From assembly GCA_964408805.1 (NCBI GenBank), contig CAYPAV010000005.1, positions 4,476-68,475 on the forward strand: 64,000 nucleotides of DNA, in the 5' to 3' direction. Of the stretch, positions 23,375 through 62,239 are shown piece after piece (position 1 is the first letter of the stretch; every line of letters starts with the position of its first letter). Origin of the DNA: an uncultured Rhodospirillaceae bacterium. GTDB lineage: Bacteria; Pseudomonadota; Alphaproteobacteria; UBA8366. The position numbers were made by a program, and so were the translations under genes. The notes beneath the pieces were generated by a model. It worked only from the letters and a program-made list of their open reading frames with translations. It was not told where the DNA came from and searched no databases.

Positions 23375-24190
23375 ATGAAGCTCGGGAGATACTTCGCCGC
23401 TGGATTGGTACTCGCCGTCGCCCTTGGTTGGACGGTGCCGGCGGATGCGGCCAAGCGGGTTGCCCTGGTCATCGGCACGGATAAGTACGCCACGCTGCCC
23501 AACCTCAACAATGCGGCGACCGATGCTAGGGGCATCGCGGCAAAGCTCAAATCGCTCGGCTTCGACGTGATCCTCCGGCGGAATGCCAGCCGCCGGGATT
23601 TTGCCCGCGCGCTCGATGATTTCGAGGGCCGGTTATCGCAAGCCGAGGTCGGGCTGGTGTTCTATGCGGGCCACGGCATTCAGGCGCAGGGCAAGAACTG
23701 GCTGATCCCCGCGGATGCGAGGGTCGAAACCGAAGCCGACCTGCGTTACGAAGGAATTTCCGCCAACGACTTTCTCGAAGCGATGGAAAGGGCCGGAACA
23801 CAGCTCAATATCGTTATTCTCGATGCCTGCCGCGACAACCCCTTGCCCAAGAGATCGCGATCGGCCGCGCGTGGGCTTGCGGTGCCGATCATCCCGGCGG
23901 GTATCAAGGGAACGGCAATCCTCTACTCCGCGGCACCCGGTCAGACGGCGCAGGACGGACCGACGGGCGGACATGGCGTGTTTACCGGTGCGTTGCTAAG
24001 GGTCTTGGACGAGCCGGGGTTGAAACTCGAAGGCGTGTTCAAGAAAACGGCCATGCAGGTCTCGGCGGCGACCAACGGCAGGCAGGACCCGTGGATCAAT
24101 TCGTCGGTGAAGGGCGATTTCTACTTCCGCGAAGCGAGCAGCCGACCTCGCGGGAAAGTCACGGCACCCACGCCCACTGGCCCCTCATAG
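23375..24190 (+). CDS. exported caspase-like peptidase (C14), paralog A; N-terminal part ends at an in-frame TAG
   Basis: The RBS gaggggagg precedes the ATG at 23375. The signal peptide reads MKLGRYFAAGLVLAVALGWTVPADA. The catalytic His is in FYAGHGIQ (codon 23672) and the Cys in ILDACRDNP (codon 23828). Confidence 0.85.
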   Translation: MKLGRYFAAGLVLAVALGWTVPADAAKRVALVIGTDKYATLPNLNNAATDARGIAAKLKSLGFDVILRRNASRRDFARALDDFEGRLSQAEVGLVFYAGHGIQAQGKNWLIPADARVETEADLRYEGISANDFLEAMERAGTQLNIVILDACRDNPLPKRSRSAARGLAVPIIPAGIKGTAILYSAAPGQTAQDGPTGGHGVFTGALLRVLDEPGLKLEGVFKKTAMQVSAATNGRQDPWINSSVKGDFYFREASSRPRGKVTAPTPTGPS

Positions 24191-24208
24191 AGCCCCGACA
24201 AGGAAACC

Positions 24209-24874
24209 GTGTTCTGGCAATCGATCAAGGACAGCAAACAAGCGGGCGATTACAAAGCCTATCTTGCTCAATTTCCGAACGGAACATTCGCCGGCTTGGC
24301 CCGGAGCCGCCTCGCGGCCTTGAAGCCGGCAAAAGTCGCGTCTCCGAAACCACCGACATCAACCCCGAAAATCCCGACCCGAACGACCGCCGCCACACAG
24401 GAAACGCTCTTCTGGCAGTCGATCAAGGGAAGCACCAATCCGGCCGACTACCAGGACTACCTCATGGCGTTCCCAAAAGGCACCTTTGCGCGCCTGGCCA
24501 GGCGGCGAATCAATGAGTTGAACCGCAAGAAGGTGGCGGTGGCCCGCCCTTCAAGACCGACTCGGTCGCGGCGGATCGAGAAACTGCGCGGCTACCACAT
24601 TTGGGTCCAGACCACGAACAAGCAACGCGGCCTGACGTACTGCCGGCAATTGAAGGAGGCCGGGCTGATCGTCTATTGCTGGGCCGGAAGAGGTTCGATA
24701 TCGGACGACAATATAATGCTCAAATGCTCAACCCTGCCGTCGGATACCGGAGAGATCATTCAGGAATTCCTGGGGGCAGGAAAACTGAGGGTGTGGGACT
24801 GGCGCAAACACAAGGATTACGGCGCCAAGGTCTGCGGCAAGTACCACGCCATCACGATCCAGACGATCAATTGA
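24209..24874 (+). CDS. C-terminal part of caspase paralog A (two FWQSI...FPxGTFAxLA modules plus a Cys-rich domain); same frame as 23375..24190
   Basis: It begins at a GTG 18 nt after the TAG, in the same frame, preceded by aaggaa. The modules at 24209-24325 and 24407-24523 match those inside paralogs B and C. Confidence 0.7.
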   Translation: [221 protein letters not shown]

Positions 24875-60415: not shown

Positions 60416-60571
60416 TATTGCGGTTCCCCGGTTTCCCTCGGTATTGACATAGCCGAGCCGATTGACCGATCCAGACTGCGTCGCCATGGACTCCGGTTTG
60501 ACAGGGATCGGCGGCGGCGGCAGAATTTCCATGCGCCACTATCAGCGCGCCTTCGGCGAATCGGATTCGAT

Positions 60572-62239
60572 GTGACGAGACTCTCTGCGATTTCGGCTCT
60601 TCTGTCTCTCGGCTTGTTCTTCACGGCCTCGGCGGCCGTCGCGAAACAGGGCGGCGTCTCCGTGAAACTGCGGCAAGGCATCACCGAGGACGCCCCGATT
60701 TCCGAGGAAGTGGAACTTTACGCCCGGTCCTATGCGCTGGTCGTCGAGATCGACAAATACACCCATGGCTGGCCTCGGCTTTCGATGGCGGTGAAGGACG
60801 CCAAGGCCATTGCCGCGGCGCTGACGAAGAAGGGCTTCGAGGTGACGCTTGTCCTCAATCCCAAATCGGCCGCGCTGAACCAGGCCTTCGAGGAGTTCTA
60901 CATCCTCAAGGGCGAGAACCCGGACGCACGGCTCTTCGTCTGGTTCGCGGGTCACGGTCACAGCGAGCGCGGCGAGGGTTATCTCGTCCCAACGGACGCG
61001 CCGAAGCCGAGCAAGAAGGGTCTCTTCCGCCTCCGCGCGCTTTCGCTTCGCCGGATCGGCGAATTCGTTCGCCTAGCGGAATCGAAGCACGCCTTCGCGG
61101 TCTTCGACAGCTGCTTCTCGGGAACGGTTTTCGACAGCGCCCGTGCGATGCCGCCGGCCGCCGTCACCCGCGCGACGACGCTTCCGGTGCGTCAGTTCCT
61201 GACCTCGGGCGATGCCGGCCAGACGGTGTCCGACAACGGCGCCTTTCGCGAATTGTTCATACGAGCCCTTTCGGGCGACGAGAAGGCCGACGCCAATGAC
61301 GACGGCTATGTGACGGCGAGCGAGATCGGTCTGTTCCTGACCGATCGGGTCACCAACCTCACCGAATCGAAGCAAACCCCGCGCTATGGCAAGCTCCGCG
61401 ACAAGGACTGGGATCGCGGGGATTTCGTCTTCACCCTGCCGCAAGCGGCGCCGACACCGGTGGCGCGCGTATCCGCGACCAACCAATCGGGCGGCGGTAC
61501 CACGTCAGAGACCGCGCGGCTGCAACAGGAAAGCCTGTTCTGGGAATCGATTAAGGACAGCAACGACGCGAGCGCCTTCGAGGCCTATCTTTCGCAGTTC
61601 CCGAGAGGCACCTTCGCGCCGCTGGCACGGGTCAAGCTGAAGGCCTTGAAATCAGGGAATGCGGGGCGGAAGCGCGCCCTCGTCGACGAGCGGCGCCAGC
61701 TGGAGGCGGAGCGCAGACGATTTGCGGACGAAGCGGCGAGACTGCGGCGCGAGGGAGCGGAGAAGCTGAAAGCCGACCTTGCCGCCGAGCGCCGACGCCT
61801 GGCGGATGAGGAAGCGGCCCGCGCCGAACGCCGCCGGACGGAGCAAAGCGTCGCCCGGCTCGCACCCGCGGCCCGATCACGGCCCGGCGTCGCGCCCAAT
61901 CTCCTCACCGGGGCCGAAATACGAACCCTGCTTTCCGATAACACGGGCGTGTACACCGCTCCCCGCAAAGATCTGACTCTTTCGGTCACTTTCGATGCCG
62001 ATGGTCAAATGCGGGGATCGCGCGAAGAGGACGGGCGACGCGATTGGGGCAAATGGTGGATCGAGGACGACCGCTATTGCCGAAAATGGGACAAATGGGC
62101 GAAGCAACGCGTGTATTGCTTCTCCATTTCACTTTCCGGCGAAACCGCTACGCATATCGGCGCGATGGGGACCAAGGTCTACGACATGGAGTTGGAATCC
62201 GTGCCCGACAGCTTGCAAGGCCGGGCGGGGGATGATTGA
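60572..62239 (+). CDS. exported caspase-like peptidase (C14) with an FWESI module, an Arg/Glu coiled coil and a Trp/Cys-rich C-terminal domain, paralog C
   Basis: A GTG at 60572 gives the signal peptide MTRLSAISALLSLGLFFTASAAVA. The dyad is WFAGHGH (His 60953) and FDSCFSG (Cys 61112). The module lies at 61532-61651. The ORF-track start at 59309 is an antisense-overlap artefact. Confidence 0.82.
   Translation: MTRLSAISALLSLGLFFTASAAVAKQGGVSVKLRQGITEDAPISEEVELYARSYALVVEIDKYTHGWPRLSMAVKDAKAIAAALTKKGFEVTLVLNPKSAALNQAFEEFYILKGENPDARLFVWFAGHGHSERGEGYLVPTDAPKPSKKGLFRLRALSLRRIGEFVRLAESKHAFAVFDSCFSGTVFDSARAMPPAAVTRATTLPVRQFLTSGDAGQTVSDNGAFRELFIRALSGDEKADANDDGYVTASEIGLFLTDRVTNLTESKQTPRYGKLRDKDWDRGDFVFTLPQAAPTPVARVSATNQSGGGTTSETARLQQESLFWESIKDSNDASAFEAYLSQFPRGTFAPLARVKLKALKSGNAGRKRALVDERRQLEAERRRFADEAARLRREGAEKLKADLAAERRRLADEEAARAERRRTEQSVARLAPAARSRPGVAPNLLTGAEIRTLLSDNTGVYTAPRKDLTLSVTFDADGQMRGSREEDGRRDWGKWWIEDDRYCRKWDKWAKQRVYCFSISLSGETATHIGAMGTKVYDMELESVPDSLQGRAGDD

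Follow-up and report, generated by a model that had tools for sequence, protein, structure and literature searches.

Putatively exported caspase-fold paralogues with a shared TPR-like module and differing C-terminal domains in an uncultured Rhodospirillaceae bacterium

Results

Three caspase-fold loci in one genomic window

We analyzed a 64,000-nucleotide stretch of the genome of an uncultured Rhodospirillaceae bacterium (contig CAYPAV010000005.1 of assembly GCA_964408805.1, positions 4,476 to 68,475; hereinafter, the window), which contains exactly three loci detectable by tblastn that encode caspase-fold proteases of the C14 family (orthocaspases), denoted here paralogs A, B, and C. At each of these loci, a signal peptide-like segment and the caspase domain are followed by one or two copies of a short module and then by C-terminal domains that differ from one paralog to the next (Table 1). 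An initial annotation of the window had described three exported paralogs with a complete catalytic dyad; the dyad and the signal peptide-like N-termini are borne out. The caspase domains of A, B, and C score 122.8, 52.6, and 59.0 bits, respectively, against Peptidase_C14 (PF00656; gathering cut-off, 21.4), and the His/Cys dyad lies in the motifs YAGHGIQ and LDACRD in A, YAGHGHT and FDSCFSG in B, and FAGHGHS and FDSCFSG in C. In family alignments of 84 and 25 sequences, the columns that contain the GHG histidine and the D-x-C cysteine are invariant or at least 90% conserved; all three paralogs have an aspartate at the Cys-2 position. The N-termini, MKLGRYFAAGLVLAVALGWTVPADA/AK in A, MIYVGLRRLCAIFLLAAGLSATLNAVA/AE in B, and VTRLSAISALLSLGLFFTASAAVA/KQ in C, read by eye, show the charge, hydrophobic core, and A-x-A motif typical of Sec signal peptides, and in the aligned homologues, A-x-A is located immediately ahead of the first caspase strand. 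These N-termini, together with conserved cysteine pairs and partner domains of periplasmic types, suggest that all three proteins are exported to the periplasm. The same Pfam scan detected nothing on the single modules, which no NCBIfam model matched either, and the sequences C-terminal to the modules in A and C likewise remained without a Pfam match.

Table 1 Features of the three caspase-fold loci (positions are those of the window)
Feature	Position	Strand	Remarks
Paralog A, upstream open reading frame (ORF), 271 aa	23375..24190	+	signal peptide aa 1-25 (ADA/AK) and complete A-type C14 domain, PF00656
A-type C14 caspase domain of paralog A	~23453-24124	+	Pfam
In-frame TAG splitting paralog A	24188..24190	+	in the linker between caspase and module 1
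Module A1	24191..24334	+	48-codon register; joint hidden Markov model (HMM) 97.4 bits
Paralog A, downstream ORF, 221 aa	24209..24874	+	GTG start; two modules and 4-Cys alpha/beta domain
Module A2	24389..24532	+	joint HMM 99.6 bits
4-Cys alpha/beta domain of paralog A	~24581-24871	+	AlphaFold2 (AF2) model
Paralog B, 804 aa	32045..34459	+	from ATG; signal peptide, B/C-type C14, linker, module, linker, DegP-like unit
B/C-type C14 domain of paralog B	~32219-32930	+	
Module B	32981..33124	+	joint HMM 94.5 bits
S1C protease of paralog B	~33266-33724	+	
PDZ1 of paralog B	~33773-34045	+	
PDZ2 of paralog B	~34127-34309	+	
Paralog C, 555 aa	60572..62239	+	from GTG; signal peptide, B/C-type C14, linker, module, coiled coil, beta domain
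B/C-type C14 domain of paralog C	~60728-61440	+	
Module C	61517..61660	+	joint HMM 92.8 bits
Single helix or coiled coil of paralog C, ~80 residues	~61616-61861	+	AF2 model
Small 2-Cys, Trp-rich beta domain of paralog C	~61910-62194	+	AF2 model

An in-frame stop codon in paralog A

Paralog A had been annotated initially as a single gene at 23375-24874. Translated in frame, this region yields a 499-codon product interrupted by a TAG codon at 24188-24190, which leaves two ORFs of 271 and 221 codons, so that the window does not contain three intact genes. The 271-aa product is called on 23 contigs and the 221-aa product on 18, in JGI, ENA, and Logan assemblies, and the DNA of the locus is 100% identical in 15 of 16 contigs compared. 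The stop is therefore real, although it comes from one near-clonal population; a sequencing error was rejected given the identical DNA from all three sources. Reassignment of TAG was rejected as well because this codon terminates 12 of the 43 long ORFs in the window.

Three orthologues align with the read-through product of A at 96-100% coverage, each as a single ORF (P0273, 497 aa, 71% identity; P0185, 492 aa; and P0274, 474 aa), and the TAG codon aligns with a glycine in the linker between the caspase domain and the module of these intact proteins. The 221-aa ORF is probably the stranded C-terminal half of a former ~497-aa gene. The 221-aa product lacks a signal peptide, and all four cysteines of its C-terminal domain are conserved in the orthologues; this combination favors recent pseudogenization of the C-terminal half. 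Under this scenario, paralog A would have been hit by a recent nonsense mutation, such that the exported caspase domain persists alone, whereas the half with the modules and the cysteine domain was left without a signal peptide. The 4-Cys domain is modeled as a small alpha/beta fold and matched no Pfam, NCBIfam, or PDB sequence family. Weak matches to the Pru domain of ADRM1 (E = 0.006) were considered unreliable and are probably due to chance.

Directly downstream of A, there is an Amdase-family gene (24885-25631) that encodes a 248-aa protein on other contigs. When this gene was compared with loci L005 and L013, a 267-aa call with no Pfam match was found on one ENA scaffold, which is a strain or assembly variant.

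Fusion of a caspase domain with a DegP-like protease in paralog B

The location of paralog B stands as initially annotated, with the exception of the start codon. The mechanically derived ORF consists of 805 codons and starts with the TTG at 32042 that had been taken as the beginning of the gene, whereas the public calls, on 23 contigs, start with the ATG at 32045 and yield an 804-aa protein; none of the public gene calls gives the 805-aa version, and the ATG is the more likely start. The C-terminal half, which had been described as HtrA followed by two PDZ domains, indeed matches Trypsin_2 (84.8 bits) and two PDZ domains in Pfam. The last 426 aa align end to end with DegP-like structures in the PDB (E = 2.6e-48), with the His, Asp, and Ser residues matched; the score against TIGR02037 is 264 bits, under the 416-bit cut-off of this model. 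We found the S1C protease domain in no other relative inspected, that is, the listed homologues, 79 genome loci, and 9 metagenome loci; some of these relatives possess the PDZ pair but no protease domain. The caspase-DegP fusion is the least common feature of the three loci. Given the limited search method, its rarity is claimed for this sample only and does not amount to proof of uniqueness. Downstream of PDZ2, paralog B has an acidic low-complexity tail (34406-34456; DEAEREETETETETEENSD) that has no equivalent in the aligned DegP-like structure.

Structure of paralog C

Paralog C is 555 aa long in the NCBI and ENA calls and 541 aa long in the JGI call. The caspase fold was checked by modeling for this paralog: the AF2 model (mean predicted local distance difference test score (pLDDT), 88) has a caspase fold, and a Foldseek search with this model retrieved MALT1, metacaspases, and caspases (E = 1e-12 to 1e-7). 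Two helices of the module in this model span aa 312-327 and 333-342, and the third one, starting at aa 349, continues into the ~80-residue helix. The C-terminal domain is small, Trp-rich, and consists of eight strands, with two cysteines; it showed no sequence match in the PDB, Pfam, or NCBIfam.

The reading frame of C remains open for another 1.26 kb upstream (59309-60571), resulting in a 976-aa mechanical ORF. We rejected this extension as a high-GC artefact that overlaps a CoA-transferase gene on the opposite strand (59207-60532). Similar shadow ORFs occur antisense to a major facilitator superfamily (MFS) gene (21558-23273) and inside B and C.

The module is a repeat with affinity to BamD

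Four copies of the module had been noticed in the initial annotation and left without assignment to any named family. Their coordinates were correct to within a codon or two, and a six-frame scan with an HMM built from the four copies recovered exactly these, at 93-100 bits, and no additional one in the window up to E = 0.9. The signature of the module is E-x-x-F-W-x-S-[IV] ... Y-L-x-x-[FY]-P-x-G-x-[FY]-A-x-x-A-x-x-R. A word-indexed database search with the 48-aa profile scored just 4 candidates and produced 2 matches; therefore, we used an exhaustive search of cluster representatives (protein clusters at 50% identity) instead. At E <= 1e-3, the profile matched 11,741 representatives, of which 3,955 remained at E <= 1e-10; a single protein contained as many as 18 matched stretches, and the copy-to-copy spacing in arrays is mostly 40-60 aa. 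The arrays with many copies indicate that the module is a repeat rather than a caspase-specific linker. Consistently, in a Pfam scan of 75 of the 150 top module proteins, Peptidase_C14 was present in 39 and absent in 36; the latter carry FGE-sulfatase, PG_binding_1, SH3_3, ricin lectin, protein kinase, or TonB_C domains. The database scan with the four-copy HMM that the initial annotation had proposed did reveal a wide range of partner domains.

Among the same 75 module-rich proteins, 29 matched YfiO/BamD (PF13525), with the best E value of 2e-18; module arrays scored 67.4, 58.8, 54.7, 48.7, 37.9, 37.5, and 28.7 bits against this family (cut-off, 25). In these matches, consecutive modules align with consecutive BamD repeats, and the aligned stretches span three repeats. 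When the PDB was searched with the four-copy profile, BamD from Bacteroides (9hiv_D) was matched with E = 0.0037 over YFNTYPRGTFTELARF, and a module protein with 16 stretches retrieved a sole match, BamD from Flavobacterium (9n2d_F; E = 0.0019). A leucine-rich repeat protein, LRRTM (5a5c_A, E = 0.00018), ranked above 9hiv_D but looks like a weaker match and was dismissed as spurious, the match being composed of ten very short stretches, none of them significant by itself. In the AF2 models of C and of the downstream ORF of A, each module consists of three short helices with pLDDT above 90; those of module A1 occupy residues 2-6, 12-21, and 28-38 in the product of the 221-aa ORF. Judging from these profile matches and models, the module is probably a divergent tetratricopeptide repeat (TPR)-like three-helix unit of ~40 aa, of the BamD (YfiO)/YbgF (CpoB) type. 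This assignment partly counts against the initial interpretation, which was said to fail should the module prove to be a well-known named repeat with a defined function.

A conserved core with variable C-terminal domains

The module occupies a fixed position in the homologues of these proteases. It is found at about aa 305-360 in 105 of the 120 listed homologues of C (in two copies in 13 of these) and starts at about aa 270 in 117 of the 119 listed homologues of A (two or three copies in 22), so that the listed caspase homologues have between 0 and 3 copies each. Of 108 homologues compared with C, 81 lose homology within aa 350-379, and of 111 compared with A, 82 do so within aa 310-349; both of these boundaries are located just past the first module. 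Beyond them, the homologues carry FGE-sulfatase, SH3_3, PG_binding_1, Sel1, OmpA, SPOR, PDZ, and HlyD-like barrel domains as well as peptidyl-prolyl isomerases, TolB, TctC, PEGA, TonB_C, and Lcl_C, nearly all of them periplasmic or envelope-associated types.

Screening one genome per species identified 378 relatives, in marine metagenome-assembled genomes labeled Rhodospirillaceae, Rickettsiales, Pseudomonadales, Azotimanducaceae, and Desulfobacterales. Many genomes contain four or five family loci (five each in PAZH01 and JASLSL01, four in JAYPOZ01). Furthermore, 79 loci from GTDB genomes (L021-L099) encompass 111 caspase-like ORFs, and accordingly, in many of the relatives, another member of the family lies no more than 3 kb away. 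In Magnetospira thiophila, the locus tags run from JCM17960_00180 to _00310, which is suggestive of a cluster of 6 or more paralogues.

No conserved neighboring partner gene was found in the 79 loci, in agreement with the initial annotation: the most common flanking family occurs in just 13. This family is represented by a ~336-aa uncharacterized ORF with no Pfam match (L029:1807-2817, - strand) that adjoins the caspase gene, probably in a case of clade-specific synteny rather than as a functional partner. The neighbors in the window are unrelated metabolic genes for MFS, Amdase, enoyl-CoA hydratase, nitroreductase, CoA-transferase, and hydantoinase proteins.

Two subfamilies and old duplicates

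Pairwise alignment of the three paralogs revealed a shared N-terminal core and unrelated C-terminal parts. The B and C proteins are 62.6% identical over 361 aa; their genes, for which nucleotide similarity across the protease domain had been noted without an identity figure, are 70.6% identical over 956 nt, and the shared 17-mer quoted at that time is present at 32885 and 61397. The similarity stops at the final residues of the module, beyond which the two sequences are unrelated. Across the homologous region, identity at third codon positions is 0.53 compared with ~0.32 expected from composition and does not change abruptly at the module; no exact run shared by the two genes exceeds 19 nt. 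Homologues of C from other organisms are 72-74% identical to it and so are closer than B. Thus, the duplication that gave rise to B and C is old, with saturated divergence, and preceded speciation. Recent gene conversion between the paralogues was ruled out by the synonymous divergence and the short shared runs.

Paralog A shares 33% protein identity with B and 29% with C and, by sequence comparison, is a member of a separate subfamily. At the DNA level, BLAST detects similarity between A and either B or C across the module only (72-77% over a conserved core of ~90-100 nt); over the entire 48-codon register, the identity between modules is 60-67%, and third-position identity is 0.42-0.62. All three paralogs and a fourth one, P0277, lie on a single JGI contig of 355,790 bp, and hence the genome holds at least four family members. 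P0277, which is located outside the window, is a 740-aa protein with an A-type caspase domain 76% identical to that of A, one module, and a long helical (TPR-like) tail.

Discussion

The three loci quite probably represent ancient paralogues, split between two subfamilies of a very large family of C14 caspase-fold proteases that marine Proteobacteria export through the Sec pathway. The core of this family comprises a putative signal peptide, a caspase domain, a linker rich in Pro, Ala, and Thr, and at least one three-helix unit of ~40 aa, behind which different lineages apparently fused different periplasmic or envelope domains: A has a 4-Cys domain, B a whole DegP-like protease including its PDZ pair, and C a coiled coil followed by a small beta domain. 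There is good support for the evolutionary shuffling of domains behind a conserved core; such mixing is typical of this family, and the loci represent no new kind of system.

The paralogs may act as periplasmic endopeptidases. In meta- and paracaspases, Asp at Cys-2 is tied to specificity for a basic P1 residue (Arg), and its presence in all three paralogs is suggestive of cleavage C-terminal to Arg or Lys. The TPR-like unit would provide a protein-binding surface beside the protease, and the location or the substrate would be determined by the C-terminal domain. The retention of the module by the caspase in ~90-98% of the listed homologues from two deeply split subfamilies suggests that it matters for the protease, and it could be an exosite, a latch, or an oligomerization element.

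Several observations weigh against this interpretation. The export, activity, and specificity of the paralogs are read from sequence. The single modules in the window match neither the TPR clan nor YfiO in Pfam at E <= 0.1, the PDB matches to BamD are weak (E = 0.0019-0.0037), and the top 25 Foldseek matches of the two-module model, almost all of them BamD or YbgF, are non-significant (E = 0.16-1.6); with single copies unseen by Pfam, the link to BamD rests on arrays in other proteins and on these weak PDB and non-significant Foldseek matches. The two AF2 models (predicted template modeling scores, 0.56 and 0.46) do not define the interdomain geometry, including any contact between module and caspase. 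In paralog A, the downstream half is no more diverged from the intact orthologues than these are from one another, so that either the lesion is recent or this half is still in use, and an AAGGAA motif is located 3 nt ahead of the GTG of the 221-aa ORF, which, consequently, might still be expressed.

The last two observations, together with the fixation of the split in every contig recovered and the intactness of the downstream ORF, are what could be expected if the split of A were functional, the caspase being exported and the module/Cys-domain protein being translated on its own, or if the TAG were read through. We consider this unlikely: fixation says little in a population that, as recovered, is near-clonal; each of the three orthologues with full coverage is one uninterrupted ORF; TAG serves as a regular stop codon in the window; the AAGGAA motif doubles as the conserved Lys-Glu codons of the module; and the downstream product has no signal peptide even though its 4-Cys domain and the partner domains of the family look periplasmic. 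Recent loss of the C-terminal half by a nonsense mutation accounts better for this locus.

A different role for the module was implied by the initial annotation, in which the paralogs were viewed as a duplicated family and the module as the boundary for recombination that swaps the C-terminal parts. The duplicated family with exchanged C-terminal parts stands, whereas the module as a recombination site is not supported. In its strongest form, this alternative posits that the module is a landing pad akin to the pre-toxin repeats of polymorphic toxins, where new heads are brought in from paralogues or spare cassettes by homologous recombination. The C-terminal domains are indeed highly diverse, homology within the family stops just past the module in ~75% of the comparisons, and the module is the sole stretch of A with DNA-level similarity to B or C. 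Nevertheless, the DNA identity of the modules, including that at third positions, is within the expectation from protein constraint and codon bias, a 19-nt exact run is too short for efficient homologous recombination, and the B/C duplicates are saturated and predate speciation. The window contains no extra modules, cassettes, or caspase fragments, the copy number of the module itself varies, and the module is found outside caspases in nearly half of the top matches scanned (36 of 75). The landing-pad scenario hence appears quite improbable. Still less plausible, in our view, is a role of the paralogs as cytoplasmic caspases of programmed cell death or anti-phage conflict, either as effectors of NTPase systems (the EACC1-associated type) or as metacaspase-like executioners. 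Programmed cell death is often invoked in the literature on bacterial metacaspases (PMC3501461), the Pfam scan of the paralogs gave a weak CHAT match, and among the caspase models of NCBIfam, a match was obtained solely with NF047832 (caspase, EACC1-associated type); all NCBIfam matches of A, B, and C are, however, below threshold, with 78.3, 48.1, and 49.7 bits, respectively, for NF047832, far under the cut-off of 140. The signal peptide-like N-termini of all three proteins, the periplasmic-type partner domains, the metabolic neighbors in the window, and the lack of an NTPase or any other conserved partner in the 79 loci all argue against such a role.

A bolder extension of the exported-protease interpretation, by analogy with BamD, strikes us as doubtful. 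Under this extension, the signal peptide-caspase-TPR-like core would be a functional cassette in which the BamD-like unit serves as an exosite or an autoinhibitory latch that recognizes exposed segments of envelope proteins, the C-terminal heads tether the protease to envelope structures, and B is a two-protease machine for periplasmic quality control. If so, the unit would bind, for example, unfolded termini of outer membrane proteins, much as BamD does, and the machine formed by B would be previously undescribed.

Comparison with known systems places these loci among the prokaryotic orthocaspases (MEROPS C14, PF00656), with which they have in common a C14 domain bearing the His/Cys dyad, N-terminal hydrophobic helices, domain fusions, and multiple paralogues. 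Published surveys report 112 architectures of prokaryotic caspase homologues, including fusions with FGE-sulfatase, Sel1, TPR, and peptidoglycan-binding domains, and likely signal peptides (PMC3501461; PMC4933709), and state that such homologues are abundant in Alphaproteobacteria, often with many paralogues per genome (Asplund-Samuelsson et al. 2012, PMC3501461). In the matching passages of the same two surveys, neither a fixed caspase-linker-module core nor a distinct repeat subfamily is mentioned, the TPR or module motif not having been a target. A literature search on Peptidase_C14 in combination with YfiO or HtrA retrieved nothing relevant. The characterized orthocaspase MaOC1 is cyanobacterial. 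The closest solved folds to the model of C are the paracaspase MALT1 and type I and II metacaspases (E = 1e-12 to 1e-8 in Foldseek), which also have Asp at Cys-2; at 16-21% identity, however, these are eukaryotic, cytoplasmic proteins with death, Ig, or p10 domains and lack the signal peptide and the TPR-like unit of the paralogs.

The module resembles BamD (YfiO, PF13525) and YbgF in its helix-helix-Pro-x-Gly/Ser-helix arrangement, the Y-L-x-x-[FY]-P-x-G-x-[FY]-A-x-x-A motif, and the presumed periplasmic setting, but differs from them in the extra invariant F-W-x-S-[IV] of the first helix and in that a single copy goes unseen by Pfam. Unlike BamD, which is a five-repeat lipoprotein, the module stands alone or in pairs behind a protease, and nothing points to a role of the module in BAM or Tol-Pal. 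The C-terminal half of B is similar to DegP and DegQ (HtrA, S1C) in the His-Asp-Ser triad and both PDZ domains; the difference is that, in B, the DegP unit is located behind a caspase domain and the module within a single polypeptide. Loci of the cassette-swapping type, such as those of polymorphic toxins, feature near-identical DNA up to a sharp junction and silent cassettes, neither of which is seen in the window.

The genes described here are ordinary members of a large, known, uncharacterized class, and the module belongs to a known repeat type, within which it forms a subfamily that is still uncurated. This TPR-like subfamily is very common (~12,000 clusters at 50% identity) and is missed by single-copy Pfam scans. 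Its recognition should help annotation and clearly marks where constructs for biochemical work can end. The fusion of caspase and DegP and the conserved core of caspase and TPR-like unit are the points most worth the attention of biochemists; the literature searched contains no experimental study of secreted caspases of this type. Marine Alpha-, Gamma-, and Deltaproteobacteria contain putatively secreted caspase-fold proteases in abundance, frequently as several paralogues in the same genome, and the domain composition of these proteases would place many of the bacterial "metacaspases" in proteolysis at the cell envelope rather than in cytoplasmic cell death.

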